Of a DNA stretch of 64,000 nt, positions 13,911 to 55,576 are shown piece by piece. Source of the DNA: Candidatus Aldehydirespiratoraceae bacterium (GTDB lineage: Bacteria; Actinomycetota; Acidimicrobiia; Acidimicrobiales; Aldehydirespiratoraceae); assembly GCA_965204595.1 (NCBI GenBank), contig CBDBEW010000014.1, positions 1,957,207-2,021,206 of the forward strand, written 5' to 3'. Below the pieces are notes generated by a model. It saw only the letters and a list, made by a program, of their open reading frames with translations. It did not search any database and was not told where the DNA came from. The position numbers and the translations under genes were made by a program. Positions within the stretch are counted from its first letter, which is position 1. The number at the start of each line of letters is the position of its first letter.

Positions 13911-13928
13911 CTTAGGAACAGATTTTTT

Positions 13929-15509: not shown

Positions 15510-15511
15510 GA

Positions 15512-26248: not shown

Positions 26249-26600
26249 GAACCTTACGGAACTCTCAGATGCGGCGTTGCAGGCCGAGATCGGGGCTCGA
26301 CTCCGCCATGCGCGGCTGCAGGCGAACATCTCGCAGGAGGAGCTAGCTGTCGCGGTCGGAATCAGCCGTCGGACCGTCGCCAACGCCGAGAAAGGCGCGG
26401 GTTGCACGCTTCAGACGTTGCTGGCGATTCTGCGCGGTCTCGGCCGCCTCGAAGCCATCGAAGCACTGCTCCCCACGCCTGTGCACAGCCCGGTTCAGCT
26501 TCTTCGCGATGGTGGTGTGCCCCGACAGCGTGCCAGACGCAAGACCTCGGACCCAGCCGACGATACTCCCAGGTGGAAGTGGGGAGACGAAAGGCCGTGA
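26247..26600 (+). CDS. hipB: HipB-like XRE-family HTH antitoxin
   Basis: 'LRHARLQANISQEELAVAVGISRRTVANAEKG' is an XRE HTH. GTGA overlap with hipA. Confidence 0.75.
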   Translation: MNLTELSDAALQAEIGARLRHARLQANISQEELAVAVGISRRTVANAEKGAGCTLQTLLAILRGLGRLEAIEALLPTPVHSPVQLLRDGGVPRQRARRKTSDPADDTPRWKWGDERP

Positions 26601-30635: not shown

Positions 30636-31427
30636 TCAGGGGTTCAGGTGCGAGGTCCGCTTGCCCGCAGCGGATCCGAGGTCGTTCGAGATCTGATTCG
30701 CAAGGCGCCGGACGGTTCGGGCGGCGTCGATCAGTGAGCCCTCGAATCGGAACTTCGGGGCAGTGATGCCGAGCGCAGCCACCGCCACGCCAGAAGGGCC
30801 GCGAATCGGTGCGGAGCAGCCGACGACGCCCTCCTCGAACTCGTCGATGACAATCGAGTAGCCGGCCTCTCGGGCACGGGCGACTTCTGCCGCGAACTTC
30901 GTAGGGGTCGTGCATCGCAGCCCGGGAGCTTCGGCGATGCGTACGGGGGTGAGCCACGCGGCGGCGAGTTCGGGCGGTTCGGTCGCGAGGATCGCCCGAC
31001 AGGTCGAGCTGCCGGCGGCCGGGCCGGCCGCTCCGACGCGGGCATACGGTGCGAGCGCATGCCGCGATGCCTCTGAGGCGATGATGATCGTCTCGTCCGC
31101 GCGGAGCACGACGACCTCAGCCGTCTCGCCGTAGGCCGAGGCGAGCTGTCGGAGGTAGGGGCGGCTCGCCGCAGCGACATGCGATTCGAGGCTCTGCGCT
31201 GCGATGGTGTGTATGCGCCACCCGATCACGTAGCCCCGCGACGTGGCGTCGCGATCCAGAATGCCCGCATCGGCCAAGGTCGAGAGAGCCCGTGAGATCT
31301 GGCTCTTGTCTCGTCCGGTCTGTGCGGCCAAGTTGCTGACCGAGCTCGGTGCGCCGTCGGCAGCGACGATGTGGTCGAGGAGTTCGAGGTCTCGGCTCAG
31401 TCCAGCTGCGTTCTTCCGGGCTGCCAT
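30636..31427 (-). CDS. IclR-family transcriptional regulator
   Basis: 263 aa from ATG 31427: wHTH 'SVSNLAAQTGRDKSQISRALSTLADAGIL' plus an IclR effector domain. Divergent from the oxidoreductase operon. Confidence 0.8.
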   Translation of the reverse strand: MAARKNAAGLSRDLELLDHIVAADGAPSSVSNLAAQTGRDKSQISRALSTLADAGILDRDATSRGYVIGWRIHTIAAQSLESHVAAASRPYLRQLASAYGETAEVVVLRADETIIIASEASRHALAPYARVGAAGPAAGSSTCRAILATEPPELAAAWLTPVRIAEAPGLRCTTPTKFAAEVARAREAGYSIVIDEFEEGVVGCSAPIRGPSGVAVAALGITAPKFRFEGSLIDAARTVRRLANQISNDLGSAAGKRTSHLNP

Positions 31428-31553
31428 ATGCGCACATCCTAGAAAGCTGTTGCCATATATACAACTCTTCTTGTGTTTTGCTGAGGGGCCGGCTACGATG
31501 CCCTCAGAGTGGCTACGGACTTCTAGCCCGCGAGAAAGGTTGAGGAACTCAGG

Positions 31554-40544: not shown

Positions 40545-41360
40545 ATGGGGCATTTAGTTTCACCGCTCACAGACGCAGACGCTGCGCCAAATCGTCTAGC
40601 CGACCGACTTAGTGCAATTGTGATGGCCGACGATGTGGTGGCATCTCTCCGAACCGCGCTGCAGAATGGTCAGCTTGAGGAGTTGGTGCCAGAGTTTCCT
40701 TTGTTGAGGATGGAACAACATCCCCTGCATCGCCATAAGGATGTTTTGGAACACACAATTGTGGTGGTGGCTCAAACCCCGGCTGACGAGATCGTTCGGT
40801 TGGCAGCACTTTTCCACGATATTGCGAAACCCGTTACCCGTAGTTTTGCTGGTGGCGATGTGACGTTTCGCCATCATGAGGCCGTGGGTGCTCGCATCAC
40901 CGCCGACCGTATGACAAAGCTTGGTTACCCTACACACACTGTTGTGCAGGTGAGTGACCTGGTGCGGCTTAGCGGGCGTTTCAAAGGTTACAGCGATGGT
41001 TGGTCTGATTCGGCGGTGCGCCGTTATGCCCGCGAAGCTGGTGCTTTGCTTGGTCGTCTTAATTGGTTGGTTCGTGCCGATTGCACCACTCGTAATCGTC
41101 AAAAGTTCGCCAACCTGCAAACTTCGGTGGATGAACTTGAAGCACGGATCGCCGCCCTTGCCGCGCAAGACCGTCAAGCGGCGGAACGCCCTCAGCTAGA
41201 CGGTAAAGCTGTGATGGATCATCTCGGGGTTGGCCCAGGCCCTCATATTGGTGCTGCACTCAATTGGTTGCTTGAACTGAAACGCAGCGAAGGCGTTTTG
41301 GAAGAAAAAGAGCTAATCTCCCGCCTCCAAGCATGGTGGCACCAATCCCAGCGCAGCTAA
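40545..41360 (+). CDS. HD-domain protein equivalent to the C-terminal half of an actinobacterial CCA-adding enzyme (no NTase head)
   Basis: 271 aa; 'HPLHRHKDVLEHTIVV', 'LAALFHDIAKPVTR', 'FRHHEAVGARI', 'ADCTTRNRQK', 'LDGKAVMDHLGVGPGPHIG'. There is no Pol-beta nucleotidyltransferase domain upstream. Confidence 0.7.
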   Translation: MGHLVSPLTDADAAPNRLADRLSAIVMADDVVASLRTALQNGQLEELVPEFPLLRMEQHPLHRHKDVLEHTIVVVAQTPADEIVRLAALFHDIAKPVTRSFAGGDVTFRHHEAVGARITADRMTKLGYPTHTVVQVSDLVRLSGRFKGYSDGWSDSAVRRYAREAGALLGRLNWLVRADCTTRNRQKFANLQTSVDELEARIAALAAQDRQAAERPQLDGKAVMDHLGVGPGPHIGAALNWLLELKRSEGVLEEKELISRLQAWWHQSQRS

Positions 41361-42368: not shown

Positions 42369-45300
42369 ATGGAATTGAACGAGAGCCTCGCTACGCAGAT
42401 GTTGGGCAGACGCGTACGATTGCCACGCCAAATGGGAGTGGTGGTCGTAGAGACCACGCGGGAGACTGCCGGTGGCGTGGACCTCTTTGTCTCCGAACCT
42501 TCGAACCCGGACGAGATCCGGAAAGTCAAGCTGAGTCCAGAACTTCTTCCCGAACTAGAGGTCATCGAGGCGGACTGCAGGTCAGCCCCGGAGCGGGTGT
42601 TGGCCGGCTTGTGGACGGAATGGATGCTGGACGCAGCACGCGCCGCCGCGTCCACGGTGCTGGTGTCCACCCGGCTGCGGCCCTACCCGCACCAGATGGA
42701 TGCGGTGTACGGAGTGATGCTGCCCCAGCCGTTGCTGCGCTTCCTGCTCGCCGACGAACCCGGCACGGGCAAGACGATGATGTCGGGGCTTTGGCTGCGT
42801 GAGGCTCAACGACTCGGACTCGTGAAGCGGGCGCTGGTGGTCTGTCCGGCGCACTTGGTCGGCAAGTGGCAGGCCGACTTCGAGCGGTTCCTCGGTGGCG
42901 GCCTGCGCGAAGTCACCGCCGAGACAGTGCGCTGGGACGGCTTGGCCACTGCCCAGGCCGATACCTGGGTGGTGTCGCTGCATCTGGCCGCCGCAAACCC
43001 GCAGGTGCGCGAGGCGCTGCATCCCGACCGCGCCGGTTGGGATGCCGTCATCTTCGATGAAGCGCATCGCATGACCCCGACCGCGGAGACGTTTCACCGT
43101 GTCGGTCGCGAACTGTCTGCCGATGTGCCGCACGCTCTCTTCCTCACCGCCACGCCCCACCGCGGCGACGAGCGCTACTTCCGGGAACTGCTCCATCTGG
43201 TCGACCCGACGATCTTCCCGAGCGTTGTCGACGGCGACACGCCGGCCTCGCCGTCGCAGACAGCCGGCGCACCGCTCGCCCGCAAGCTGATCCGCCCCGG
43301 CTCGTTGCACTTCCTGCGCCGCATGAAGGAGCAGTTGGTCGACTACGACTCGCGCACTCGGTTGTTCCGTGAGCGCGAGGCGGTCAATCTCAAAGTGCGG
43401 CTGAATGCCACCGAGCGGCAGTTCTACGACGCGTCGCAGCACATCGCCGATACCTATTTCCCGGTTCGCGGCCGCCAGCTCGCCGCGATGGTCTATGGCA
43501 AGCGGGCGGCCTCCTCGCTGTACGCGCTCGCCTGCACGCTACAGCGGCGCCTCGAGCGGATGGGCGCCGACGACGGACCGGCGCTCGCGGGCGACAACGA
43601 CGTCGCGGTCGTCGAACGCGAGAGCGACGACGACGCAGCCGAGGAGCAGGTCACCGCGGCCCGTTCGCTCGACGCCCGCGCCGAGCGGGAAGCGATTTCC
43701 GAACTACTGGCCGACTTGGAAGCGGCCGTAGAGACGGCATCCACTACCGCCGATACCAGTTCAGCAGTGTCCAAGTGGCAGCCTTTGAACGAATGCTTGG
43801 CCGAGCACGGCATCACCCCGGGTTCAGGCGAACAACTCGTCGTGTTCACCGAATACGCCGACACGGCCGCATGGCTCGTGCGCATGTTCACCCAAGCCGG
43901 CTACACGGCACGCAGCTACTCGGGCGCCAACAGCCACCCCGAGCGGGCTGCCACGCGCCAGCAGTTCGAGGACGGCGAGTTCGAGGTGATCGTCTCAACC
44001 GACGCCGGTAATGAGGGTATCGACCTGCAGGCCGCCCATGTGCTCGTCAACTGGGACATCCCCTGGTCGCTGGTCCGCCTCGAGCAGCGCATGGGCCGCA
44101 TCCACCGCATCGGCCAAGATGACAAGGTGTACCTCTACAATCTGGTGGCGCTGGGTACGCGCGAGGGAGACGTGCTCGCCACGCTGCTCGAGCGGCTGGT
44201 TGCCGCCGCCAACGAACTCGGCGGCCAGATGTTCGACTGTCTGGCAGCAGTGATGGAACGCGCCCGCACGAACGCAGGCACGGCAGAGCAGTCGCTGCTG
44301 CGGTGGTACGGCGATCCCCCGTTCGATCAGGCAGACCCGTGGCCGACTGTCGATGAACTCAAGCGCGCCCGAGACGACTACTTGGCGGAATCCACGCAAC
44401 TCAGCGTGGAGGTGGATACCGAGACGGCGAACGCGGCGCGAATCGACGAGATTGTCTCCCGCGTCAACCCGGTCATCGTCGAGCACTTCTTGGGACGGGT
44501 CGCCTCGGCGAGCTTGGTCGACTGTCGGCCGGCGCCGCTCGGCGACGGCTTCTACTACCTGTCTGTGGACCCGGAGGCTCACGGCTGGGACCTGCCTTCG
44601 GCTCTGGGCGGCGCCCACGACACCCAGTCGTTGGTGGTGACCCGGGGCGAAGCTCGTTCGACCGCGATGGCTCAGGGCGTGAATCGGGCTGCCGACGCCT
44701 TGATGCTCGGGCCGAGCGACGACGCCTTCGGGGCGCTGGTCGAAGGACTGCGGGCCCGGCTTGAGGTCGACATGTGGCGGGGTGCTGTGCTGTGCGACAC
44801 GGCCTCGCCGGACGATTACACGCTGTTCGTGTTTGAATGCGAGATCACTGAAGGCGGGAGCAGCGAGAGTTCGCGGCATCGTCCCAGGCGAAACACGCAG
44901 ACTTGGTTGATCGCCGTAAAGTCTGATGGCACGACGCGCAGGGTGTCGTGGGCTGAATTACCGAATCTCGCTGCTCCATCGGTTGAGACAGACTTCGTCG
45001 ACGTTGCCGGTGTAGATTCACCGACCGACGAGGCGGTTTCCGCCCTGGCATCGGCGGCGGCTCGGCAAGCGGCAGAAGCTGAGCAGAGCGAGCGCGAACA
45101 GCGGCTCGATGAGTGGGTGAGGCAGTTGCGCATCCAGATGCAGCCGCTGCCGAATCATCTGACCGACCACATCGCCGACCGCACCGTCGGCAGGCGGGAA
45201 CGCCAGCGGATCAAGTCTGCGGTCGACAGCAGACTCGCCGAAGCCCGACAGCTCGCACGGGTGACCGCGTCGGCGCCGCGCCTCATCGGTTGGGCGCGTG

Positions 45301-45737
45301 TTGTGGCCGGACTGGAAGTCGACCCAGCGGATCTGGAGTCTGCTGCTGAGAGCGAAGAGGTCTCGATGCGCTGGGTCACCGAGCATCTGGTGTCAGACGG
45401 GTGGGACGTCACCGACGTCCACACGCAGAACCGCGGCTACGACCTCGAAGCCCGCCGCGGTCCGCAAGTGCGTTGCATCGAGATCAAGGGTGTGGCCGGC
45501 CAAGCCTCTTCGAGTGGTGTGCGCTTGACATCGGGCGAACTGACCAGCGCACGTCAGCGCGGCGACGACTACTGGCTGTATGTGGTGGACAACTGCATCG
45601 ACGGCGAAGGCAGCCTGTTCGGGCATTGGCAGAACCCGGCGAGCGTGTTCCGCGACAGTCTTGAGAATGTCACCGAGTTTCGGCTCGCCGGCAGCGCACT
45701 GAGCGCAGCCCTCGAACATCAAGGCGAGGGCGCATGA
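42369..45737 (+). CDS. SNF2-family helicase with a C-terminal DUF3883-like (PD-(D/E)xK-type) domain
   Basis: 1122 aa from ATG 42369; 'LLADEPGTGKT' (motif I, ~42750-42780), 'VIFDEAHRM' (II, ~43050), 'LFLTATPHRG' (III), 'RLEQRMGRIHRIGQ' (VI). Tail: 'GYDLEARRGPQVRCIEIKG...DDYWLYVV'. Confidence 0.85.
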   Translation: MELNESLATQMLGRRVRLPRQMGVVVVETTRETAGGVDLFVSEPSNPDEIRKVKLSPELLPELEVIEADCRSAPERVLAGLWTEWMLDAARAAASTVLVSTRLRPYPHQMDAVYGVMLPQPLLRFLLADEPGTGKTMMSGLWLREAQRLGLVKRALVVCPAHLVGKWQADFERFLGGGLREVTAETVRWDGLATAQADTWVVSLHLAAANPQVREALHPDRAGWDAVIFDEAHRMTPTAETFHRVGRELSADVPHALFLTATPHRGDERYFRELLHLVDPTIFPSVVDGDTPASPSQTAGAPLARKLIRPGSLHFLRRMKEQLVDYDSRTRLFREREAVNLKVRLNATERQFYDASQHIADTYFPVRGRQLAAMVYGKRAASSLYALACTLQRRLERMGADDGPALAGDNDVAVVERESDDDAAEEQVTAARSLDARAEREAISELLADLEAAVETASTTADTSSAVSKWQPLNECLAEHGITPGSGEQLVVFTEYADTAAWLVRMFTQAGYTARSYSGANSHPERAATRQQFEDGEFEVIVSTDAGNEGIDLQAAHVLVNWDIPWSLVRLEQRMGRIHRIGQDDKVYLYNLVALGTREGDVLATLLERLVAAANELGGQMFDCLAAVMERARTNAGTAEQSLLRWYGDPPFDQADPWPTVDELKRARDDYLAESTQLSVEVDTETANAARIDEIVSRVNPVIVEHFLGRVASASLVDCRPAPLGDGFYYLSVDPEAHGWDLPSALGGAHDTQSLVVTRGEARSTAMAQGVNRAADALMLGPSDDAFGALVEGLRARLEVDMWRGAVLCDTASPDDYTLFVFECEITEGGSSESSRHRPRRNTQTWLIAVKSDGTTRRVSWAELPNLAAPSVETDFVDVAGVDSPTDEAVSALASAAARQAAEAEQSEREQRLDEWVRQLRIQMQPLPNHLTDHIADRTVGRRERQRIKSAVDSRLAEARQLARVTASAPRLIGWARVVAGLEVDPADLESAAESEEVSMRWVTEHLVSDGWDVTDVHTQNRGYDLEARRGPQVRCIEIKGVAGQASSSGVRLTSGELTSARQRGDDYWLYVVDNCIDGEGSLFGHWQNPASVFRDSLENVTEFRLAGSALSAALEHQGEGA

Positions 45738-48463
45738 GCACGCGCCTGATCGAGCGCTGGTTCCCGTGCGAGGAAGTCTCGACGCACTCGACGCGAGGCT
45801 GGGGCACTGGCTTCGCTGAGAAGAGCTTGTTCACCTGGTTCGCATCGCGACCGCTGGCCCAGGCCAAGGCGGCCGTGCTCTGCTCGTTGTTGCCGTGGCC
45901 GGATGATCCGAGCGAACAGGAAGACTTGAAGAAATTGGTGCGAAGGGCGATGGCTGACTACGACGCCGCGAACGACGAGTTGCGCACCAAGCTTGAAGAG
46001 CACCATCCAGCAGGTGCGAAGCTCTGCGATCCGTTCTCGGGCAGGGCGATGATTCCGCTTGAAGCGGCCCGTCTCGGGGTCAAGGCTTGGGGGATCGACT
46101 ACTCACCGGTCGCAACCCTCGCCGGCCGGCTGCTGGCCGACTACCCGATGCGCGACTGGGAAGACGAGCCGTCGCTGCCGTTCGAGGGGTACGAGGAGCA
46201 CGCCGCTGAGCACTTCGCCGAACCGCGGCTGTTGTGCGATGTGAGATTCGTGCTCGACGAGGTAGGGCGCCGCTACGAGTCTGCGATGGATGAGTTCTAC
46301 CCCGTGGTCGACGGCAAGCGGCCGTGGGGCTACGTGTGGGCTGTGACATTGCCCTGCACAAATTGCGGCAATCGGTTCCCGCTCACCGGGAGCCTCGCTC
46401 TACGCAACCCGAATCCCAAGAAGAATGATCCGGGGCAGTCGTACCGGATTGTCGCCGACGTTGCCGGCACATTCACCACAGAGGTTGTCGACGGCCCGCC
46501 GACAGTTCCGCCGACTCTCGTGAAATCGCCCGGTCGGCGCGGCAAGTCCGGCGTGTGTTGTTTCTGCGCCCACGTCCATCCTCTCGACACCTTGAAGCGC
46601 ATGATGCGCGACGGACTCAAGGGTGACGCGATGCTCGTTGTTGCCGATCTCGATGTCGGCGTCGGCAAGCGCTACCGGGAACCCAGCCACGTCGACCTCG
46701 ATGCGGCGGAAGGACTGGACGCATTGCTTGGCGCAGAAAGGTCGTTCGGGCCTGACTTGTCGGCAGTACCCCGCGAGCCGATGCACCCAGGCCTCTCTCG
46801 GTTCGTCGGACCTGTCAATTTCGGCTACCGCAGTTGGGGAGAACTGTGCAATGACCGCCAGACCCTCGGGTTCATTTGGATGGCATGCGCTATCAACGAG
46901 ATGAGTGAGAGGATGCTGTCCGCCGATGTCAGCGAGGACTATGTGTCGGCTCTCGCGGGCTACGCCGCTTCAAATCTCGTCCGCAAGATGAAGCGAAGCA
47001 CCCGAAGTGCCACCTTGGGAACTTTGCGCCAAGACGCCGGACATATCTTTTTCAATGACTCCGGCATTTCGCATAGCTTTGACTACTTCGAGACAGGCTG
47101 TGGCAATGGGCCGGGCACATGGAATTCGTTATCGGCCCACACTATCCGGAGTCTGAGAAAGCAACTAGATCGTGTAGATGGCAAGTCGGCCGAGGTTACC
47201 CGCGGCTCGGCGACCAGCCTGCCATTGCCCGATAGATCGCTCGACGCGGTGGTCACCGATCCGCCGTACGACTCGATGATCAACTACTGCGACTCGTCAG
47301 ACCTCATGTACGTTTGGCTCAAGCGAACGCTCGTCACCGCCGATCCGCTGTTCGGCCTGACCAGCGATCCTTGCGGTCTGCAAGACAAGACGCACGAAGC
47401 GGTCATCAAGTTCACAACGGTTGACGATCCTGATCATCGCACGGAAGAGCATTACAGGCAGACCGTCACGAAGGCGTTTGAACAGGCGCGATTGAAGGTC
47501 AAGCCCGACGGGGTTGTCAGCATCGTGTTCGGGCACGGAGACCCTGATGCCTGGGTTCGGGTGCTCACGGCCATCACCGATGCAGGGCTGGTGCTGACGG
47601 GTTCGTGGCCGTGCAGCACCGAGAAGGGCGGCAAGCAGACCGGCGAGTACATCGACAACACGATCATGATGGCGTGTCGTGCCGCTGCACAGGATCGGCC
47701 CGTCGGCGACGTCCGCATCGTAGACGAGGAGATTCGGGCGGTGATCGCGTCGCGTGTCCCCGAATGGACCGCTGACGGCTTGGCCGATTCCGACCAGCGT
47801 ATGGCGGCGATCGCGCCGGCGATGGAAGTTGTCGGCAAGTACTCCGAAGTGCGTGACTTCACCGGCCATCCGGTGCCGTTCGATCACTTCTTGGGCATGG
47901 CGCATCGCGCCGTCGAAGAAGCCGCCGATGTACGGATCGACCGGTTCAAGCTCACGGACTTCGATGTGCGCACCCGGTTCGCGCTCTCGTGGCTGCGTCA
48001 GCACGGCCGCAGCGTCGCCCCGGCGTCCGAGGCACGCTGGCTGCGGCTGTCCTACGACGTGACCGAGGATGACGTCAAGGGAGTGCTGCAGAAGGTGAAG
48101 GGTGGTCCGCGGCTGGTATTCGGCGATGAGGTTGCTGACACGCTCAGCCTCCATCCTACGAGTCCTGTGGTCGACATCGTGCTCGCCGTGGCTGCGGAAG
48201 AGCGCTCGATAAGCGACATCGCGGCGGCCCTGCACCTGCTGGAGCGGGCCGATGACGAGATGCTCTGGGCTGCGACGGCGGAGTTCGCTCGCGTGCTCGG
48301 CGAGAGCGACCGTGACGGACAGACCCTCACCTGGGCGGTGCGGCAGCGGCACCTGATTGCCGAGCGGGCCGCGCGACTGACAAAGGAGACCGTCGAGCGG
48401 CTGGCCGAAGAGGAACAACAGGATCGACAGGGCACGCTGTTCACCTACGAGGGGGCTGACTGA
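45734..48463 (+). CDS. DUF1156-type DNA methyltransferase with a Zn-ribbon insert
   Basis: 909 aa; N-terminus 'LIERWFPCEEVS...FTWFASRPLAQAKA', SAM motif 'CDPFSGRAMIPLEAARLG', Cys pairs 'CTNCGN...CCFCAH', catalytic 'VVTDPPYDSMINY' (~47250-47270). ATGA overlap with the helicase. Confidence 0.8.
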   Translation: MSTRLIERWFPCEEVSTHSTRGWGTGFAEKSLFTWFASRPLAQAKAAVLCSLLPWPDDPSEQEDLKKLVRRAMADYDAANDELRTKLEEHHPAGAKLCDPFSGRAMIPLEAARLGVKAWGIDYSPVATLAGRLLADYPMRDWEDEPSLPFEGYEEHAAEHFAEPRLLCDVRFVLDEVGRRYESAMDEFYPVVDGKRPWGYVWAVTLPCTNCGNRFPLTGSLALRNPNPKKNDPGQSYRIVADVAGTFTTEVVDGPPTVPPTLVKSPGRRGKSGVCCFCAHVHPLDTLKRMMRDGLKGDAMLVVADLDVGVGKRYREPSHVDLDAAEGLDALLGAERSFGPDLSAVPREPMHPGLSRFVGPVNFGYRSWGELCNDRQTLGFIWMACAINEMSERMLSADVSEDYVSALAGYAASNLVRKMKRSTRSATLGTLRQDAGHIFFNDSGISHSFDYFETGCGNGPGTWNSLSAHTIRSLRKQLDRVDGKSAEVTRGSATSLPLPDRSLDAVVTDPPYDSMINYCDSSDLMYVWLKRTLVTADPLFGLTSDPCGLQDKTHEAVIKFTTVDDPDHRTEEHYRQTVTKAFEQARLKVKPDGVVSIVFGHGDPDAWVRVLTAITDAGLVLTGSWPCSTEKGGKQTGEYIDNTIMMACRAAAQDRPVGDVRIVDEEIRAVIASRVPEWTADGLADSDQRMAAIAPAMEVVGKYSEVRDFTGHPVPFDHFLGMAHRAVEEAADVRIDRFKLTDFDVRTRFALSWLRQHGRSVAPASEARWLRLSYDVTEDDVKGVLQKVKGGPRLVFGDEVADTLSLHPTSPVVDIVLAVAAEERSISDIAAALHLLERADDEMLWAATAEFARVLGESDRDGQTLTWAVRQRHLIAERAARLTKETVERLAEEEQQDRQGTLFTYEGAD

Positions 48464-48465
48464 CA

Positions 48466-51402
48466 ATGAATCCAAGCATCCGAGCGCGCCCGTGGTGGGA
48501 GACCGTCGCCTTGCGCCCCGAGGTCATGGGCAGCGACGGCGCGGTCGACGACGTGCAGATGTCTTTGCACGATGCCGTGTTCGGTGTGGCAGGCGTCGAA
48601 TCCAACCAGACGCCGTACGCGTCAGCGCCCTACTACGGCGCCATCACCCACCCGACGGGCGACCTGGTCGAGCTCATGGCTCGAGTTGCGGTGCGGCTCG
48701 GTGTGGAGGGATCAACGCAGACCGCTGCTGTTTGGCGACTCGACCAGGCGATGGGAGGCGGCAAGTCGCACGGCTTGATCGGCCTCTGGCATCTCGCCGC
48801 GCATCCGACTGAACTGGCGCCGACCGATCTGGGCCGAGAGGTATTCGCCGCTGCGCGAGAGATTGCAGGTGATGGCAACGTCCGGCCCGACCTAGGCAGC
48901 CCAATTTGCGTCGTGCTTGATTGCGACAACACCACCGCCGCCAGCGAAGACTTCGGCCCTGCGCAACTGCTCGGCGAGCGCTTCCTGTGGCGGCTCTTCG
49001 ACAAGGACGGGCATCGTTACGACCAGTTCAAGGAGCACATCACCAGCAAGAAACATCTGGCCGAGGCGCTGCGGAGTACCGGTCGGCCGGTGGTGATCCT
49101 GATCGACGAGATCATGGACTACATCCGGCTGGCGGCGGCCAACGATCCTGACGGCGCACTGCGTGAGATGGCGTTCCTTCGGGCGTTGCTCGATGTCGTG
49201 AACGACGTGCCGAATTGCGTCGTTGTGGTCGTGATGATCGCGTCAGATCAGGACGACATGGCGTTGAACGAAGCGGGTGCCCAGTGCCAAACGGAGCTGG
49301 AGGCGCTCTTGACGCGCAACGGTCGCACGACGGCTGTGACGGGCGGTGGCGACTTCGCCGAGATCATCCAGCGGCGACTGTTCGAACGCCTGCCGTCGCG
49401 CGCCGAGACCGACCATGTCGCGGACCGCTTCACCGAGCACATGCGAGGTCCGTGGGCGACCAAGGTGTTCGACAAGCTCGGCGGGCCGACGGGTATCGCG
49501 TTCCGTGACGCCGTGACGCGCTGCTATCCGTTCCATCCCAGCCTGATCGCACTCGCCGAAAACGAGTGGGCGCAGCACGCGGGCTTCCAGCGTGTCCGTT
49601 CCACCATCCGGCTCTTCGCGTCGACCGCTTATGAGCAGTCGCGGCGGGCTGTCGCCGGGGAGTGGGTTCCCGAGTTGATCGACAGCGGCGACCTGCCCTT
49701 GCAGTCGCACCAGGTGCGAGACTCGCTGCTCAGCTCCGGCTTGGTGGCCGATCACCGGACCCTGTCGAACTTGCGCGAGGTAGCGAGCGTCGACGTCGTC
49801 GACCAGCACAACCCGGACCGGGGTGTGGCACGTCGGCTCGATGCGCTTCGCGCCGAGGGCTGGCGCAACGACAATCCGCGATCAGCAGAGCGGATGGCTA
49901 CAGCGCTGTTCGTCCGGTCGCTGTGTCCCCGGGCGAATGGTGCCCGGGGTGCGACCGAGGCGGAACTGCACGCCGCGTCGTTCGTGCCGGTAAGCGGCTA
50001 CGGCACCGGCGACGCCGAGGCGGTGGCCGTTGAGCTGCTGGAAACCGATGCGGGCATGGCCTCGGTCGACTCGATTGCGGGCCGTGGCAGCAGTCCCAAG
50101 CGTTGGGTCGTCGAGACTCGTAAGACGCTCGGGATGCTCACCAAAGCCGAGAAACAGGCGGTCAGCGAGGCCGACCGTGACCAGGCCGTCACGGAGCGGG
50201 CGTTCGAGCTGACTAGCTCTGGCCCATTCGGTGACGTGATTCGTGTCGATGGTGGCGAGGTGCCACCGGGGGACATTTCGTTTGCCGATGCATGCGACGT
50301 GATCGGTCAGGCCGGCATCGACCGGCAGCACCAGACGCGGTTGGTGATCTTGGACTCGCGCTGGTTCTCGTTGTTCAATGGCGACGACACGGTGACCCGA
50401 GAGGCAATCGCAGCCGCGATGGGTCGGGGTTCGTCGCCCATGAGTGTGCAGTGGGCATCGTCAGCCGTGTTTGCGGTCGCCAACACGGCAACCCGTGCAC
50501 AGGCCCGAGGCCTCGCGTCGGAGTGGCTGGCCCGCAAGCGTGTGGCTGAGTTGCCTGCTGTGCAAGCCGACGACGACATGGCTGCCCAAGCCAAGCGAGA
50601 CGCAGCCGAAGCGCTCAAAGCGCTCGATGCCCGGGTGAAGTTGTGCTACCGCCACATCGTCTATCTCGCGCCCAAGGGTGAATTCGAACGGGAAGAGCGG
50701 TTCGTGCGGCTCGCGAACGACAAGCAGGACGCCTTGAACGGCGCTCACGTGTGGGCGTTGCTGCGCGAAGAGAGCAAGGCGTTCGATGTCGGCGAGTTCG
50801 ACCACGGCGCGCTGATGCACAACCTGCGCGACAGCGACTACGGCGTGCCGCTCGCCGAGGTCCGCGACAGCTTCTGGTCGAACCCGCACAAGCCGCTGCT
50901 GCGCACCGGAGCAGGCGAGTTGTCCCATGCGATCTACGAAGCCGTCCGCCGCGGCGCTACCGAACTCATCGACGACAGCGGCAACGTCTACGCCGTCGGC
51001 CACCAAGGCGACATCAACCTGGCCTCGCGCACCGTCCGCCTCCGCCGCCCCGCGGCGCCCGATCCGCCAGACCCGGCACCGGCGCACCGCGTCGACGTAG
51101 ATGAACCGCGGCCGCAGTTCGACCCACCTCTACCGAATCCGCCGACGCCACGCCCGGCCCCCCAGCACTGGCAGCTGTCGCTGACCGCCAACACGAGCCT
51201 AGGCCCCGACGTCGACCGTGACAGCCTGGTCAACCTGCTGCGCGAGCTCATCAACCGTATCGAAGACGGTTTCGCAGCAGATGAAATCCAGCACATCACC
51301 CAGAGCACCCAGATAACCCTCACCGCTGAGCCTGCTGATATCGAAGCCCTCCGCGCCCTGGCCCGAGCCGCCGGCGTCACCATCGACGCCCGCCAGTTCT
51401 AG
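48466..51402 (+). CDS. DUF499-type AAA/P-loop ATPase
   Basis: 978 aa; Walker A 'AMGGGKSHGLIGLWHLA' (~48754-48775), Walker B 'VVILIDEIMDY'. Starts 2 nt after the methylase stop. Confidence 0.75.
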   Translation: MNPSIRARPWWETVALRPEVMGSDGAVDDVQMSLHDAVFGVAGVESNQTPYASAPYYGAITHPTGDLVELMARVAVRLGVEGSTQTAAVWRLDQAMGGGKSHGLIGLWHLAAHPTELAPTDLGREVFAAAREIAGDGNVRPDLGSPICVVLDCDNTTAASEDFGPAQLLGERFLWRLFDKDGHRYDQFKEHITSKKHLAEALRSTGRPVVILIDEIMDYIRLAAANDPDGALREMAFLRALLDVVNDVPNCVVVVVMIASDQDDMALNEAGAQCQTELEALLTRNGRTTAVTGGGDFAEIIQRRLFERLPSRAETDHVADRFTEHMRGPWATKVFDKLGGPTGIAFRDAVTRCYPFHPSLIALAENEWAQHAGFQRVRSTIRLFASTAYEQSRRAVAGEWVPELIDSGDLPLQSHQVRDSLLSSGLVADHRTLSNLREVASVDVVDQHNPDRGVARRLDALRAEGWRNDNPRSAERMATALFVRSLCPRANGARGATEAELHAASFVPVSGYGTGDAEAVAVELLETDAGMASVDSIAGRGSSPKRWVVETRKTLGMLTKAEKQAVSEADRDQAVTERAFELTSSGPFGDVIRVDGGEVPPGDISFADACDVIGQAGIDRQHQTRLVILDSRWFSLFNGDDTVTREAIAAAMGRGSSPMSVQWASSAVFAVANTATRAQARGLASEWLARKRVAELPAVQADDDMAAQAKRDAAEALKALDARVKLCYRHIVYLAPKGEFEREERFVRLANDKQDALNGAHVWALLREESKAFDVGEFDHGALMHNLRDSDYGVPLAEVRDSFWSNPHKPLLRTGAGELSHAIYEAVRRGATELIDDSGNVYAVGHQGDINLASRTVRLRRPAAPDPPDPAPAHRVDVDEPRPQFDPPLPNPPTPRPAPQHWQLSLTANTSLGPDVDRDSLVNLLRELINRIEDGFAADEIQHITQSTQITLTAEPADIEALRALARAAGVTIDARQF

Positions 51403-51534
51403 ATGGTTTTAGGATGTCCACGCTATCTAACGTAATTCTGTTAATATTCAGTTATTGTCATAGGATAGTGAAATGTGTGATGCCGTTTGTTGTCGCGCAC
51501 CACGGTAGGCCACGTCGGAAGGAGTCGCGATACC

Positions 51535-52575
51535 ATGGGTAAGGCTTCCGCCGGCAGAACGCATCGGATTCAAGCCGTCGATCTTTTCTGCGGTGTCGGA
51601 GGATTGACGCACGGACTCGTTCGATCAGGCATCGCTGTGCGAGCCGGTTTCGACAATGATGAGACATGTCAGTACTCGTATGAGGCCAACAACCCTGGTA
51701 CACGGTTCGCAGTTGCCGATATCTGTGACATTGACCGCGTCGACATCGAACCGTACTTTGCGGACGCGAACACGTCCGTGCTGGTCGGCTGCGCTCCCTG
51801 CCAGCCCTTCTCGGCTCACAACCGTAAGCTTCGGAATGAAGCTGACTGTTCCCTCGTCTACGAATTCGCCAGGCTAGTCGAAGAAACGCAACCCGACATC
51901 GTCTCTATGGAGAACGTGCCAGGCTTGGCCAAGCACGAGGCGTTCACTGATTTTCTGCACACATTGGAGCGGCTGGGGTACTGCCACGATGAGGCCGTCC
52001 TTTGGTGTCCAGACTACGGCGTCCCTCAGACGCGGAGAAGACTCGTGGTGCTTGCTTCGCGTCTAGGAGAGATTCGGGTCCCACAAGGCCGCGCCGACGG
52101 CCGTACCGTGCGCGACATCATCCAGGGGCTACCTGCGATTGAGGATGGTGAGGCCAACCGGAATGATCCGGCACATGTCACGTTGCCATTGTCTGCCCTC
52201 AACAAGCAGCGCATTCAACAATCGAAGCCGGGTGGCACTTGGCAGGACTGGGACGAGGCGCTCTTGAGCGCATGTCATAGAGACTCGTACTACCCGGCCC
52301 CGTACGGCCGGATGTCTTGGGATGATGTTGCGCCCACGATCACAACCCAGTTCTGCTACTACAGCACGGGACGCTTCGGACACCCTGACCAGGATCGAGC
52401 AATCTCTGTGCGAGAAGGGGCTCTGCTTCAGACATTTCCGTTGGACTACAAGTTCGTTGAAGATGATCAGGCACTTGTCGTGCGCGATGTCGCACGTCAG
52501 ATCGGCAATGCAGTGCCTGTAAGACTTGCCGAGGCTATCGGTGACGCAATCGTGGAGGCATGTGATGCAAGATGA
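51535..52575 (+). CDS. dcm: DNA (cytosine-5)-methyltransferase
   Basis: 346 aa from ATG 51535 (SD GGAAGGAG). Motifs I 'DLFCGVGGL', IV 'GCAPCQPFS', VI 'ENVPGL', VIII 'QTRRR', X 'GNAVP'. Confidence 0.9.
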   Translation: MGKASAGRTHRIQAVDLFCGVGGLTHGLVRSGIAVRAGFDNDETCQYSYEANNPGTRFAVADICDIDRVDIEPYFADANTSVLVGCAPCQPFSAHNRKLRNEADCSLVYEFARLVEETQPDIVSMENVPGLAKHEAFTDFLHTLERLGYCHDEAVLWCPDYGVPQTRRRLVVLASRLGEIRVPQGRADGRTVRDIIQGLPAIEDGEANRNDPAHVTLPLSALNKQRIQQSKPGGTWQDWDEALLSACHRDSYYPAPYGRMSWDDVAPTITTQFCYYSTGRFGHPDQDRAISVREGALLQTFPLDYKFVEDDQALVVRDVARQIGNAVPVRLAEAIGDAIVEACDAR

Positions 52576-54649
52576 AAATGATGCCCGCTATGAGATGGGC
52601 ATCAGCTTACGGGTTCTCGATCATCTCGGACTTAATCTCTACAGCAACACTCCCGCGGTCATTGCTGAGGCGATCGCCAACGCCTGGGATGCGGACGCTA
52701 CGCGCGTAGAGATCACTATCGACCACGACGCAAACACGATCACGGTCGCGGACAACGGATGCGGAATGGAGTTGGCAGACGTCAATAGTCGTTATCTCCT
52801 TGTCGGCTATCGCCGCCGGGATAAACAAGGGCTTGAAACTCCGAGAGGCCGAAAGCCGATGGGCAGAAAAGGCATCGGGAAACTGTCATTGTTCTCCATA
52901 GCGAACAAGATATTCGTTCACACCAAGAAAGACGAGTGTGACCCGGAGGCATTCCTCATGGACGCACACAAGATCCGTCTCACAGTTGGAGAACAGGAAG
53001 ATGCCGCAAGAGATAGTGGTGACTTCAAGACCCCACGCTATTACCCGGAGCCTGTTGACTTCGAGCCGGATCGACTCCTTGAGGAGACTGGTACGACGGT
53101 GATGATCACCGACCTCAAAAAACAACTCACCCAATCTTCTGTCATCGGCTTACGCAAGCGAGTCGCTCGCCGTTTCGGCCTTCGCGCTGATGACTTTGAA
53201 ATCTCTGTCAACGGTGACCCGGTTGGATTCACCGACCGAGACTATTTCAGTAAAGCCAGGTTCATCTTCCAGTATGGTAGCTACGACTACTCTGCACACT
53301 GCCTGAATCTCGAACGAGCGGAGGATAGTCACGAATCACCGGCCATCATCCGCAGATCAAGATTCGGTGAAGATGGCGAGGCCACTGAGGATGGACCTTA
53401 TGAGATCAGCGGTTGGATCGCAATCGCGAAACGTTCCAACGATCTTGATGATCACGCTGGGGATCAAGACGACAACCTGAACAAAATTACGATTTTGATG
53501 CGGGGAAGGGTAGCCCAAGAGGACATCCTGCAAGAATATCGCCTAGGAGGCATGATAACCAAGTATATCTTTGGTGAAATCCATGCCGATTTCCTTGACG
53601 ATGATGAAGATGATGACATCGCCACAACTAGCCGACAACGTCTCGCCGAGGACCATCCACACTATGTAGCGTTAAAGAAGTTCGTTGAAAACGAACTCCG
53701 CTATATCTGGACTAAAACAAACAAACTTAAAGAGCAAAGACAGTTCGAAACTGCGATAACCTCTAATCCACACGTAAAGAAGTGGTACGATGGGTTGCCG
53801 ACATCCCTGAAGAAGCCAGCTAGAAGCGTCTTTCGGGGTATCGACGTGGCGAATATGGATGATGAACGCCGTCACGCTTTCTATGCAACAGCAGTTCAGG
53901 CATTCGAACACCTTAAAGTAAGGGAAGCGCTCCATCAACTTGAAGAAATAGATGACCACAACATCGAGCTTTTTCTTTCGTGGTTAGTCGAAATGGACGC
54001 AATCGAAGCCGTGTCCTATTTACGTATTATTCAAGACCGCCTGACAATCATTGATGAACTTGAGCAACGAGTGGACGATAATACCTTAGAGAGAGTGCTT
54101 GAGGAATATCTTTTTGATCATCTTTGGCTCTTTGATCCTGCTTGGGAACGCGCGACTGAATATTCACACATGGAAAAGCGGATTCAAAACACAATTACCC
54201 AACGTGAAATTCGTGGCAAATCTACAGTTCGACCAGATATTCGCTATCGACGTATTTCGAATGGGCATGTCATCATAGAACTCAAGAGACCCTCGGTCAG
54301 AATAAGCAAGACTGCTATTGAGGAGCAGGTGAAAAACTATATCGACGCATTACGAGAATACAATCAAAAGGACCCAGAAGAAAGCGTGTTGCCCATTCAT
54401 GCCTATTGCATAGTGGAAAAACTCCCCTTAGGGTGGGACGACCGCAATACTCGACAACGCGACGAGGCATCGCTTAGAGTTTACGACATTCGAGTGATGA
54501 CATATACGGAATTGATCAAACGTGCAAGATCCGCGTATGCGAAGTTTATCCAAGCACATGCCCCTGTTGCAGAAATAGGAGAGACAGTCGAAGCAATCCG
54601 CACATATCAACCATCCGACCCAGCTCGTCTCGATTTAGAAGTGTCGTGA
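52565..54649 (+). CDS. GHKL (HATPase_c-type) ATPase with a C-terminal PD-(D/E)xK-like nuclease motif
   Basis: 694 aa from ATG 52565 (11-nt overlap with dcm). Bergerat-fold boxes 'EAIANAWDADA', 'ADNGCGM', 'GRKGIGKLS'. C-terminus 'RPDIRYRRISNGHVIIELKRP'. Visibly lower GC than the upstream operon. Confidence 0.7.
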   Translation: MQDENDARYEMGISLRVLDHLGLNLYSNTPAVIAEAIANAWDADATRVEITIDHDANTITVADNGCGMELADVNSRYLLVGYRRRDKQGLETPRGRKPMGRKGIGKLSLFSIANKIFVHTKKDECDPEAFLMDAHKIRLTVGEQEDAARDSGDFKTPRYYPEPVDFEPDRLLEETGTTVMITDLKKQLTQSSVIGLRKRVARRFGLRADDFEISVNGDPVGFTDRDYFSKARFIFQYGSYDYSAHCLNLERAEDSHESPAIIRRSRFGEDGEATEDGPYEISGWIAIAKRSNDLDDHAGDQDDNLNKITILMRGRVAQEDILQEYRLGGMITKYIFGEIHADFLDDDEDDDIATTSRQRLAEDHPHYVALKKFVENELRYIWTKTNKLKEQRQFETAITSNPHVKKWYDGLPTSLKKPARSVFRGIDVANMDDERRHAFYATAVQAFEHLKVREALHQLEEIDDHNIELFLSWLVEMDAIEAVSYLRIIQDRLTIIDELEQRVDDNTLERVLEEYLFDHLWLFDPAWERATEYSHMEKRIQNTITQREIRGKSTVRPDIRYRRISNGHVIIELKRPSVRISKTAIEEQVKNYIDALREYNQKDPEESVLPIHAYCIVEKLPLGWDDRNTRQRDEASLRVYDIRVMTYTELIKRARSAYAKFIQAHAPVAEIGETVEAIRTYQPSDPARLDLEVS

Positions 54650-54757: not shown

Positions 54758-55384
54758 TCAAGACATTGCGCTGTAATCGGTATCGTCACGCAGGTGCGCG
54801 AACTGCGCGGCATTGAGAATGTGATTCCACAGCCGTAGGCCCGGAGCTCTCATCCGACGGTATGGCTGCTCAGGACTCCACCACATCGCGGTCTCAACTC
54901 GCTTCCCAGACTCGCGCGCAATCTCGATTGCTGGCACCATGTCTCTGTCAGCCGATACCACTACGGCCACATCGTAGGCATCGTCACGTGCTTCGAGAGC
55001 AATGTCGAGGGCCATCATCACATCAATTCCCTTCTCTTCAGCCCGCCACGAGGTTGGCTCGCCCATATTCCAAGCCGTCGGCTGATATCGCAGAGGCCTG
55101 CTTTGTACTTCTACTAAGGGCTGAGATCTCCAAAGGGCGAACTGTCGCGCGGATCCTGCCTGTATCTTGCTTCCGCTCTTAGGTCCAGCACGACCTCGGT
55201 AGACTTTCACCGCAACGAGTTCACGGGACGAGTCGACGCTCTTACCGAGTTCGGTGAGTCTCAAGCCGAGTTGCAGGGGATTTACATGCCCGAAAGTCGA
55301 CGGGTCGCGCCCGGGGTCTCCGAACACTTCACGCGCCGCAAAACGGAGATTCTCATAGTCAATGAATACCGACACCCTAGTCAT
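54758..55384 (-). CDS. NYN (LabA/PIN-like) domain protein
   Basis: 208 aa from ATG 55384; 'RVSVFIDYENLRFAA' and 'VVVSADRDMVPAIEIARESGKRVE' are NYN acidic motifs. Confidence 0.7.
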   Translation of the reverse strand: MTRVSVFIDYENLRFAAREVFGDPGRDPSTFGHVNPLQLGLRLTELGKSVDSSRELVAVKVYRGRAGPKSGSKIQAGSARQFALWRSQPLVEVQSRPLRYQPTAWNMGEPTSWRAEEKGIDVMMALDIALEARDDAYDVAVVVSADRDMVPAIEIARESGKRVETAMWWSPEQPYRRMRAPGLRLWNHILNAAQFAHLRDDTDYSAMS

Positions 55385-55576
55385 CGCTCCGCCTCCGCAA
55401 AGAATATGCCCCGCCATTCCCGGCGAACCGGGAAGGCGGGGAACTGAGACACGATTATAGCACTATTCGCGCCCGCTGCAACCATGAATCGGTGAGCATA
55501 GCGGTTCGCGAATCTGGGGTTTGATGATGCGCTACTCGCGAACTCGCAGGGCCGTGAGCATGGTTTGACTAGGTAG

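Follow-up and report, generated by a model that had tools for sequence, protein, structure and literature searches.

A compact hmaA-hmaB-hmaC operon of the Hma (Type-1 BREX-related) anti-phage family in an uncultured Acidimicrobiales genome

We have analyzed here a 64,000-nucleotide stretch of genomic DNA (the window) in which an ORF scan finds three ORFs, intact and on the same strand, that encode 1122, 909 and 978 aa and together span 42369-51402. We name them after the profiles that they match best:

42369..45737, + strand: hmaA, predicted Swi2/Snf2 helicase-nuclease effector (PADLOC HmaA, Pfam, identity to P0121)
45734..48463, + strand: hmaB, DPPY amino-methyltransferase, predicted N6-adenine, 909 aa (PADLOC HmaB, 1e-39)
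48466..51402, + strand: hmaC, predicted DUF499 BrxC-like ORC/Cdc6-type AAA+ ATPase, 978 aa (PADLOC, Pfam, fold)

The hmaA ORF (42339/42369..45737, + strand) encodes 1122 aa when read from the ATG at 42369, and the database protein P0121 is 100% identical to HmaA and exactly 1122 aa long. The hmaA stop and the hmaB ATG overlap as ATGA at 45734-45737 (a -4 nt junction), and hmaB and hmaC are separated by a gap of 2 nt (48464-48465). Each gene aligns end to end with its homologues and has no frameshift, and thus none of the three ORFs carries a lesion. The coordinates and alignments agree with an earlier note on this DNA, which had described the trio as intact and packed head to tail with these two junctions, and all of the motifs quoted there are found in the translations. 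The overlap and the short gap point, at the sequence level, to translational coupling, which would allow stoichiometric co-production of HmaA, HmaB and HmaC. No sigma-70-like promoter was found upstream of hmaA in a consensus scan, which is weak evidence for an actinobacterium, and the counts of promoter and terminator sites were at or below shuffle expectation. A search of Rfam returned no structured RNA in the locus.

The domains of HmaA are as follows:

42411..42533, + strand: N-terminal small beta-barrel, possibly Tudor/SH3-like, aa 15-55 (AF2 model)
42678..44228, + strand: Snf2 ATPase core with motifs I, II, III and VI, aa 104-620 (Pfam, invariant motifs)
45324..45719, + strand: predicted PD-(D/E)xK nuclease, NOV_C/DUF3883, aa 986-1117 (Pfam NOV_C, 2.1e-14)

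Pfam recognizes SNF2-rel_dom, Helicase_C and NOV_C (formerly DUF3883) in this protein, bearing out the earlier description of an SNF2 translocase ending in a DUF3883-like D...ExK module. The ResIII/SNF2-rel_dom match covers aa 104-359 and Helicase_C aa 482-582. The helicase motifs are DEPGTGKT (aa 129-136), DEAH (aa 230-233), TATP (aa 260-263) and QRMGRIHRIGQ (aa 573-583), with GKT, DEAH, TATP and QRxGRxHRxGQ invariant across 42 HmaA homologues. The C-terminal motif GYDLEAR...IEIKG lies at aa 1023-1041, within a domain modeled by AF2 as an alpha-beta-beta-beta-alpha-beta core carrying D1025, E1038, K1040 and E1057, all four of which are invariant (42/42 homologues). They correspond, by motif position rather than by alignment, to D1084/E1104/K1106/E1121 of the Halomonas nickase (PMC11232893). 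The N-terminal barrel is modeled at pLDDT above 80, with strands at residues 15-17, 24-33, 36-43 and 46-55. RapA is the PDB entry closest to HmaA in sequence (3e-19) and also in fold (E 7.5e-21, ~1100 columns); the fold match is full-length and includes the N-terminal region, where RapA carries Tudor-like domains.

HmaB has three features of a methyltransferase with an inserted metal-binding module:

46028..46045, + strand: motif I-like DPFSGR, aa 99-104, putative SAM binding (conservation)
46355..46567, + strand: four-Cys Zn ribbon, C208/C211/C275/C278, in the insert between motifs I and IV (conservation)
47258..47269, + strand: catalytic motif IV DPPY, aa 509-512 (invariant, 43/43 homologues)

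The two cysteine pairs form the motifs CTNC (aa 208-211) and CCFC (aa 275-278). All four cysteines are invariant (43/43 homologues), as are D99, G103 and R104 in the same number of homologues. The insert agrees with the Zn-finger TRD insert of BREX-related (BR) methyltransferases (PMC12839542). The top PADLOC matches are the HmaB profiles PDLC00660 and PDLC00661 (1e-39 and 1.2e-36), a moderate match at 134 bits, and the next-ranked PADLOC profiles are Type II-like methyltransferases. Pfam DUF1156 scores 22.7 bits over aa 9-58, just under its gathering score of 24, and NCBIfam DUF1156_antiphage matches a different region (aa 313-708) at 1e-26, far below its cut-off. Of the earlier description of a DUF1156-type methylase with a four-Cys Zn ribbon, the DPPY motif and the ribbon stand, joined by the HmaB assignment, and the DUF1156 label is borderline. 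A PDB sequence search found no solved-structure relative of HmaB.

The following features are defined in HmaC:

48754..48774, + strand: Walker A GGGKSHG, aa 97-103 (invariant, 63/63 homologues)
49096..49119, + strand: Walker B ILIDEIMD, aa 211-218 (D214 and E215 invariant, 63/63 homologues)
51061..51165, + strand: Pro-rich disordered linker of ~35 aa, aa 866-900 (pLDDT below 50)
51166..51399, + strand: small C-terminal domain of ~78 aa, possibly RRM/ferredoxin-like, aa 901-978 (AF2 model)

PADLOC PDLC00662 HmaC is the top match (6.3e-28), over profile positions 42-399 of 941 only, and the Pfam DUF499 match, at 47 bits, exceeds the gathering score of 23, which together with the Walker motifs upholds the earlier call of a DUF499-type Walker A/B ATPase. 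The PADLOC, Pfam and NCBIfam profiles all cover only the N-terminal ~400 aa. This limited coverage and the moderate HmaB score indicate that the actinobacterial clade is divergent from the sequences that seeded the profiles. With Walker A at aa 97 and a protein that follows the HmaC profile collinearly from profile position 42, HmaC has no extra N-terminal domain such as HEPN, and the locus therefore falls in the HEPN-less subset of Type-1 BR systems. A PDB sequence search with HmaC returned nothing. A Foldseek search with the AF2 model (pLDDT 78.6) gave BrxC (9zdx_C, E 1.4e-5, prob 1.0) as the best PDB match, followed by ORC2/Cdc6. The linker is the least conserved stretch of the protein (identity 0.27). 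It is indeed proline-rich, as the earlier note had it, but is not the long C-terminal region described there, since it is followed by a folded domain. This domain has helices at residues 918-937 and 956-968 between extended segments, with no strands called in the AF2 model; an RRM is predicted at the DUF499 C-terminus in the published architecture (PMC12839542).

The three genes are kept together and are under constraint. The order hmaA-hmaB-hmaC on one strand is found in 53/56 related genome loci, counting those with enough upstream DNA, and the -4 ATGA overlap between hmaA and hmaB is widespread among the relatives. The families are thus recurrent neighbors, and together with the tight gene coupling this supports the functional linkage proposed earlier. 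Across 42-63 homologues, no catalytic or Zn-binding residue varies. Against relatives at 75-85% nucleotide identity the dN/dS is 0.08-0.20, with hmaB and hmaC as low as or lower than hmaA, in keeping with the earlier suggestion that the genes are maintained by (purifying) selection. Distant relatives carry embedded ORFs in the space between hmaA and hmaB, and these gave no PADLOC match.

The trio has a GC content of 0.64, versus ~0.52 in the flanks, and DNA homology to relatives ends exactly at the gene boundaries (42559-51408). The cassette was probably acquired horizontally in its Acidimicrobiales MAG host, an assignment that comes from a search with NuoD. There are no meaningful direct or inverted repeats flanking it, profile searches detected no integrase or transposase among the scanned neighbors, and the sole tRNA found is a tRNA-Pro at 60.9 kb. 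As a check of plasmid origin, a PLSDB megablast of the 9 kb yielded only a 176-nt helicase match to a Rhodococcus plasmid. Elsewhere in the window are a nuo operon region (ORFs 7246-8061 and 10288-10827), an IclR-type regulator at 30636-31619 (NCBIfam only) and defense-gene remnants, among them a truncated GajB. Directly downstream of hmaC is what its sequence identifies as a separate Dcm/BbrUII-family Type II RM system:

51546..52575, + strand: C5 cytosine DNA methyltransferase, Dcm type, not part of Hma (Pfam DNA_methylase, 1.3e-57)
52565..54649, + strand: BbrUII/HgiDII-family Type II restriction enzyme with N-terminal HATPase_c_3, not part of Hma (NCBIfam NF050001)

The Dcm gene has a GC content of 0.52 and a Shine-Dalgarno sequence, GGAAGGAG, ahead of its ATG at 51546. 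The restriction enzyme gene shares 11 nt with the end of the Dcm gene, and its product scores 666.9 bits with NF050001 against a cut-off of 550. The earlier statement that there is no classical endonuclease gene thus holds within the trio but not beyond it, and HmaA itself carries a nuclease. At the 3' end of hmaC, cassettes of the Type II RM, DarTG and PD-Lambda-5-like kinds appear to replace one another in close relatives.

The compositional contrast and the abrupt ends of homology could be signs of a recent passenger, silent or non-functional in its host, or of a selfish module of the addiction type, maintained by post-segregational killing instead of phage pressure, and the lack of a consensus promoter upstream of hmaA and the defense-gene remnants in the window fit such a reading. 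We nevertheless consider it very improbable. The three ORFs are full length and free of frameshifts, whereas hmaA is broken in several MAG relatives; the dN/dS is well below 1; and the promoter scan covered only the sigma-70 consensus, a weak guide in an actinobacterium.

The best PADLOC profile for each of the three proteins is, respectively, HmaA, HmaB and HmaC, and on this basis the trio is assigned to Hma. For HmaA the top profile is PDLC00659 (1.8e-87), above DrmD and BrxH. The call is made at the level of individual profiles in the PADLOC (HMM) library, by best match to each protein. The combination of SNF2-rel_dom, Helicase_C and NOV_C, and of DUF499, is the architecture published for Hma (PMC11232893, Table 2). 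The locus is almost certainly a complete, compact hmaA-hmaB-hmaC operon, that is Hma in PADLOC terms and a HEPN-less Type-1 DUF499-centred BREX-related system in the more recent classification. Hma was named in 2021 (Payne 2021, PMC8565338), HmaA was tested experimentally in 2024 (Liu 2024, PMC11232893), and the whole trio was later analyzed in silico by Rakesh & Krishnan (NAR 2026, PMC12839542), who moved it to the DUF499-centred Type 1 of the BR systems. The trio is therefore a further member of an already named anti-phage system and not a new kind of system. The domain reading of the earlier note was accurate, and its general picture of RM-like defense agrees with the published model (PMC12839542). 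Its claims to novelty fall: the PADLOC models give the supposedly unnamed and uncharacterized system a name, and it has already been studied, HmaA by experiment and the trio as a whole in silico.

The mechanism that we propose has three steps. HmaB would modify host DNA by methylating adenines within a specific motif, with the Zn-ribbon insert serving for target recognition. HmaC is pictured as a BrxC-like ORC/Cdc6-type AAA+ protein that binds DNA through winged-helix modules and whose variable C-terminal domain is held by a flexible Pro-rich tether; by analogy with BrxC it would assemble on DNA with the help of ATP, detect DNA that is foreign or unmodified, and license HmaA. HmaA, a RapA-like translocase with a PD-(D/E)xK nuclease, would then move on the invading dsDNA, nick it and block phage replication. 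We give this three-step RM-like scheme an even chance when it is taken by itself. Our main reading, Hma identity together with an RM-like mechanism, has in our estimate a probability of roughly 0.55.

Experimental work on the effector comes from Halomonas meridiana. Its HmaA lowers T4 propagation in E. coli, its C-terminal domain by itself nicks supercoiled plasmid in the presence of Mn2+, and defense is abolished by R610A (motif VI) or by quadruple mutation of the nuclease; this is the only homologue for which nicking has been demonstrated, along with a requirement for Snf2 motif VI and the D/E/K/E residues (PMC11232893). The same study found that hmaA alone is sufficient for the full anti-T4 phenotype in E. 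coli and is non-toxic without hmaB, that T4 grown on an HmaB-expressing host is not protected, and that hmaB and hmaC lie near 85% and 81% of hmaA homologues, leaving ~15-20% without one or the other. The authors call the HmaA defense 'non-canonical Abi' (PMC11232893). With these observations a simple RM model sits uneasily. They favor instead an HmaA that acts as an autonomous sensor-effector in a dormancy or abortive-infection-like response, with HmaB and HmaC as a regulatory or independent layer. We regard such autonomy as unlikely in the operon described here, where the genes appear to be translationally coupled and stay together in nearly all loci of the clade. The HmaB DPPY motif and Zn ribbon and the HmaC Walker motifs are invariant at low dN/dS, which is hard to explain if these proteins are dispensable. 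Moreover, T4 DNA carries glucosyl-hmC, and this phage is a poor test of methylation-based protection.

The kinship with BREX raises a further alternative to the RM-like reading, namely exclusion without DNA destruction, in which methylation is the self mark, an HmaC/HmaA complex blocks replication by translocation or remodeling, and nicking is incidental or a backup. The HmaC fold is closest to that of BrxC, HmaA and HmaB match PADLOC BrxHI/BrxHII (1.1e-64) and, weakly, PglXI (2.8e-7), and the HmaB core is reportedly indistinguishable from Type-3 BREX methyltransferases, with HmaA resembling BrxHII (PMC12839542). Such a mechanism would leave little reason for the PD-(D/E)xK residues to be invariant in 42/42 homologues or for the Halomonas quadruple nuclease mutant to lose defense completely (PMC11232893). 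There is also no PglZ among the ORFs of at least 150 aa on the annotated strand from 31.5 to 56.7 kb (PADLOC, Pfam and NCBIfam profiles). We judge exclusion of this kind to be improbable.

The RM-like reading can be extended, tentatively and with rather less confidence, to a minimal BREX-family machine in which HmaC reads the m6A placed by HmaB and licenses the HmaA nickase, combined with an exchange slot at the 3' end of hmaC. If this is true, the compact coupled operon would be a tractable three-protein model of BREX-type self/non-self discrimination, and cassette exchange at the 3' end of hmaC would lead to layered m6A plus m5C immunity. The predicted HmaC fold, matching the recently solved BrxC, gives independent support to the proposed link between Hma and BREX. 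Taken alone, the locus is a routine annotation, another Hma/Type-1 BR system in an uncultured Acidimicrobiales genome. Hma is widespread, with 1,638 loci in 26 phyla counted in 2021 and BR Type 1 in 2,446 taxa in 2026, and only HmaA has been experimentally tested; a clean three-gene operon free of embedded genes is therefore a good candidate for reconstitution of the complete system.

Several known systems share parts with the locus. E. coli RapA, a Swi2/Snf2 RNA-polymerase recycling ATPase, has no nuclease domain, unlike HmaA, and is a housekeeping transcription factor, not a protein encoded in one operon with a methylase and an ATPase. Type I and Type III RM are set aside, as profile searches with the trio gave no hit to HsdS/HsdM or to Type III Mod, and the DpdE matches that might suggest Dpd are confined to the helicase core. 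Class 1 DISARM DrmD shares the Snf2 core (PADLOC DrmD, 3e-70), but the NCBIfam DrmD match (224.8 bits, cut-off 610) is limited to the helicase core, as is the DrmA similarity of the same protein, and there is no DrmA/DrmB (DUF1998), DrmC or PLD gene nearby. The signature genes of Type-3 BR and of BREX types 1-6 are missing.

Type-3 BREX resembles the locus in the BrxC-like fold and the BrxH and PglXI matches given above. It differs in having six or more genes rather than three, with PglZ, BrxA and BrxB/iSTAND that the locus lacks, and the helicase here has a nuclease with intact catalytic residues. Type-2 BR systems (PLD/HKD-helicase, DUF1156, DUF3780 and DUF499) share with the locus homologous proteins of the DUF499 and DUF1156 types and a Snf2 helicase. 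Scores with the 'anti-phage-associated' NCBIfam families NF042962-NF042964 are 87.5, 93.4 and 117.5 against equivalog cut-offs of 1200, 1000 and 1100. No HKD/PLD domain is present, and the PLD_Helicase and NF042964 matches are confined to the helicase part. With junctions of -4 and +2 nt there is no room for a DUF3780 gene.

The likeness to Type-1 BR is much fuller. Both have a tripartite core made up of a Snf2 helicase with a C-terminal PD-(D/E)xK nuclease having its catalytic residues, a BrxC-like AAA+ ATPase, and a methyltransferase into which a Zn-finger TRD is inserted, and the locus has no DUF3780, HKD/PLD or PglZ. An N-terminal HEPN RNase is present on DUF499 in ~56% of Type-1 taxa and absent from HmaC here. 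The Type-1 architecture further includes a TUDOR domain at the helicase N-terminus, a DUF1156 helical domain at the methyltransferase N-terminus, an RRM/ferredoxin-like domain at the DUF499 C-terminus and an HTH triad in the methyltransferase; at the first three of these positions the locus has, respectively, the HmaA beta-barrel, the sub-threshold DUF1156 match of HmaB and the small domain that follows the HmaC linker. Within Hma, a Septu system lies between hmaA and hmaB in Halomonas meridiana SCSIO 43005, and ~63-66% of Hma loci carry insertions (10.1101/2024.01.29.577857; PMC11232893), whereas the operon here is compact and has no embedded genes. Halomonas HmaB is annotated as DUF1156, to which HmaB here is a borderline Pfam match. 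The two loci have the same three families, gene order and HmaA architecture, and both HmaA proteins retain the catalytic D/E/K/E residues and the motif VI arginines.

An ORF scan confirmed the three head-to-tail genes proposed in the earlier note, with the stop of hmaA and the start of hmaB sharing the ATGA at 45734-45737 and a gap of 2 nt between the hmaB stop and the hmaC ATG:

42339 or 42369 to 45737, forward strand, hmaA
45734 to 48463, forward strand, hmaB
48466 to 51402, forward strand, hmaC

HmaA is 1122 residues long if the ATG at 42369 is the start, and a public protein of exactly this length (P0121) is 100% identical to it. The motifs originally quoted are all found in the translations, and the domain reading proved correct in PADLOC and Pfam profile searches. 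HmaA matches SNF2-rel_dom, Helicase_C and NOV_C (once called DUF3883), HmaC matches DUF499 (47 bits), and HmaB has a methyltransferase motif together with a sub-threshold match to DUF1156 (22.7 bits against 24). What does not hold is the description of the system as uncharacterised and unnamed: the best PADLOC matches of the three proteins are HmaA (1.8e-87), HmaB (1e-39) and HmaC (6.3e-28). The name Hma (helicase, methylase, ATPase) dates from 2021, when it was given to a candidate system with 1,638 instances in 26 phyla (PMC8565338). A 2026 paper recast the trio as a 'Type-1 DUF499-centred BREX-related (BR) system', defining a domain architecture for each component and proposing an RM-like sense-modify-restrict model (PMC12839542).

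At E<=1e-10 there are 1,155 homologues of HmaC; the nearest is 92% identical, and those with names come from Acidimicrobiia MAGs. Many ~50%-identical homologues (P0081-P0119) carry PASTA (PF03793) in precomputed Pfam annotation; the domain is absent from the window's HmaC. An alignment of 18 HmaC sequences, used to scan genomes, found 73 loci. Most are from Acidimicrobiia associated with sponges, among them 'Candidatus Poriferisodalis' and 'Ca. Aldehydirespirator', and some are from cultured actinobacteria. Using the window's three proteins as tblastn queries, we located hmaA-hmaB on the same strand immediately upstream of hmaC in 53 of the 56 loci with at least 7.5 kb of DNA upstream of hmaC; the remaining three are partial or fragmentary matches. 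This retention of order bears out the proposed functional linkage, and the -4 ATGA junction between hmaA and hmaB is found again in many related loci. The window's hmaA is intact, unlike that of several MAG relatives (L036, L040, L042, L046, L054, L068 and L069), in which the gene occupies two ORFs but the tblastn alignment is still full-length; these splits are frameshifts or assembly errors. In more distant relatives, hmaA and hmaB are separated by inserts of 0.8-1.2 kb that contain ORFs of 160-340 aa:

L027, 6508-7221
L064, 3761-4438
L021, 6045-7058
L068, 6123-6608

No PADLOC model matched these ORFs, which are of the type exploited in guilt-by-embedding discovery. Embedded genes occur in 62.7% of Hma loci, and many of them are defence systems (2024 preprint, 10.1101/2024.01.29.577857).

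The cassette is under constraint, with dN/dS against relatives at 75-85% nucleotide identity of 0.12-0.20 for hmaA, 0.12-0.17 for hmaB and 0.08-0.10 for hmaC. Functional residues of all three proteins are invariant among 42-63 non-identical homologues: GKT, DEAH, TATP, QRxGRxHRxGQ, D1025, E1038, K1040 and E1057 in HmaA; D99/G103/R104, C208/C211/C275/C278 and DPPY in HmaB; and GGGKSHG and D214/E215 in HmaC. Conservation is lowest at the HmaA N-terminus, the HmaB C-terminus, and the linker and C-terminal domain of HmaC. That the trio is a silent or selfish passenger appears very improbable.

For the AlphaFold2 model of HmaC (pLDDT 78.6) the top match is BrxC, a BREX ATPase (9zdx_C, E 1.4e-5, probability 1.0), with archaeal ORC2/Cdc6 next; this gives independent support to the published BrxC-DUF499 relationship. 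A BREX-like, non-degradative exclusion by the trio nevertheless seems improbable. Since Walker A already lies at residue 97, HmaC has no N-terminal HEPN domain. The 'long proline-rich C-terminal region' originally ascribed to HmaC needs correcting: it is a disordered linker of ~35 residues (866-900), after which comes a small folded domain. In the HmaA model (pLDDT 69.7), a confident small beta-barrel (residues 15-55) precedes the two lobes of the Snf2 core, an alpha/beta domain that is well predicted (~700-870), long helices and, at the C-terminus, an alpha-beta-beta-beta-alpha-beta nuclease core bearing the invariant D/E/K/E. The predicted alpha/beta domain is consistent with the 'inactive REase' of the published architecture. 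The best PDB match of HmaA is RapA, full length, by both fold and sequence; sequence searches with HmaB and HmaC found no relative with a solved structure.

The best-supported model for the trio is the published RM-like one, in which HmaB would put m6A marks on self DNA, the BrxC-like HmaC would sense foreign or unmodified DNA and license the effector, and HmaA would then translocate on the invader and nick it. Experimental support is limited to the HmaA step in a distant homologue. Halomonas meridiana hmaA by itself protected E. coli against T4, a defence that needs Snf2 motif VI (R610) and the C-terminal PD-(D/E)xK NOV_C domain (D1084, E1104, K1106 and E1121), and the isolated NOV_C domain nicked supercoiled plasmid with Mn2+ (2024; PMC11232893). 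In that study hmaA was sufficient alone and non-toxic, and HmaB did not shield T4, which is partly against simple RM logic and favours HmaA as an autonomous effector, a reading we consider rather unlikely. With support confined to HmaA and these partly contrary data, we therefore put the full three-step RM-like model at about 0.5. Our literature search found no paper testing the complete trio, HmaB methylation or HmaC function, and the mode of action of the complete trio is a question for the whole family rather than for this locus.

NuoD, also encoded in the window, is 100% identical to a protein from the public contig that carries HmaA, and the named sequences nearest to it come from Acidimicrobiales MAGs (89-90% identity), which makes the host an uncultured member of the Acidimicrobiales. 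The trio has a GC content of 0.62-0.66 against ~0.52-0.53 in adjacent DNA, and the cassette flanks in close relatives have 0.65-0.70. Nucleotide homology to these relatives is confined to 42559-~51408, that is, to the three genes and nothing else, suggesting that a bare Hma cassette was horizontally acquired. Searches around it turned up no flanking repeats, no integrase and no tRNA nearby. GC across the window (1-64000) is mosaic. The stretch at 1-17 kb, with the nuo operon and a strong GC skew, has ~0.49, and the one at 30-40 kb, with genes for an IclR regulator, a DAO/GCV_T oxidase, an aminotransferase, ADH and MFS, has 0.65-0.67; the values are then 0.53 from 40 to 42 kb, 0.64 over Hma (42-52 kb) and 0.52 from 52 to 64 kb. 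The pattern points to two or more high-GC acquisitions or to a chimeric assembly. Other genes in the window are:

527-2254, reverse strand, Type III-like N6/N4 DNA methyltransferase at the left end (PADLOC MTase_III, 7.3e-146)
2511-3122, forward strand, small Type II-like methyltransferase, also at the left end
23927-24931, forward strand, match to the C-terminal half of Gabija GajB only (profile 307-621 of 625)
26402-27904, forward strand, HipA-family toxin kinase (HipA_C + Couple_hipA) in the stretch separating the nuo operon from the high-GC metabolic block
40545-41360, forward strand, actinobacterial CCA-adding enzyme, C-terminal HD half only (208-466 of 466; 257.7 bits, cut-off 438.8)
54758-55417, reverse strand, NYN-domain protein partially matching PADLOC HEC-09 'Hma-embedded candidate' (7.7e-11, residues 120-178 only)

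The GajB-like ORF is a truncated defence-gene remnant, which fits the earlier note's remark on dead genes elsewhere in the window. Upstream of the HD-half ORF no N-terminal nucleotidyltransferase half is visible, the position being taken by a 184-aa unknown ORF on the opposite strand; the gene is either truncated or a stand-alone HD paralogue. The NYN protein could be a defence gene or merely LabA-like.

Directly 3' of hmaC, at 51546-54649 on the forward strand, lies a separate Type II RM system with a GC of ~0.52, against 0.64 for the trio:

51546 (probable start), forward strand, Dcm-type C5 methyltransferase
52565 (probable start) to 54649, forward strand, BbrUII/HgiDII-family restriction enzyme (666.9 bits, cut-off 550)

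There is an 11-nt overlap between the two genes; the restriction enzyme has a GHKL (HATPase_c_3) N-terminus, and dcm comes after a 143-nt, AT-rich spacer that contains a good Shine-Dalgarno sequence. Among close relatives (L001-L008) the contents of this slot (about 12950-16100) differ. L006 has the same Dcm and BbrUII pair, and L008, up to the end of its contig, at least Dcm; in L004 and L007 there is a Dam-class methylase, accompanied in L004 by a PD-Lambda-5_A-like gene and an unknown ORF. In L001 the slot holds DarG of DarTG (1.9e-86), and DarG probably also follows hmaC in L005, which has the same Macro-domain ORF, and in L002, which has an ORF at identical coordinates. The slot could be a cassette-exchange hotspot. 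Upstream, L001 carries a PD-T4-5/AbiD-like gene.

Among known systems, Type-2 BR is rejected by the absence of its signature HKD and DUF3780, Type-3 BR and BREX by that of PglZ, DISARM by that of DrmA/B/C, and Type I and III RM by that of their signature components. Similarity to the NCBIfam 'anti-phage-associated' DUF1156, DUF499 and PLD-helicase equivalogs, and to DISARM DrmD, is only distant, with scores far below the cut-offs. The defining features of Hma / Type-1 BR that could be tested are present, or consistent where examined at model level only. The locus is a new member of a known, named kind; it is somewhat divergent, has no HEPN and is unusually compact.
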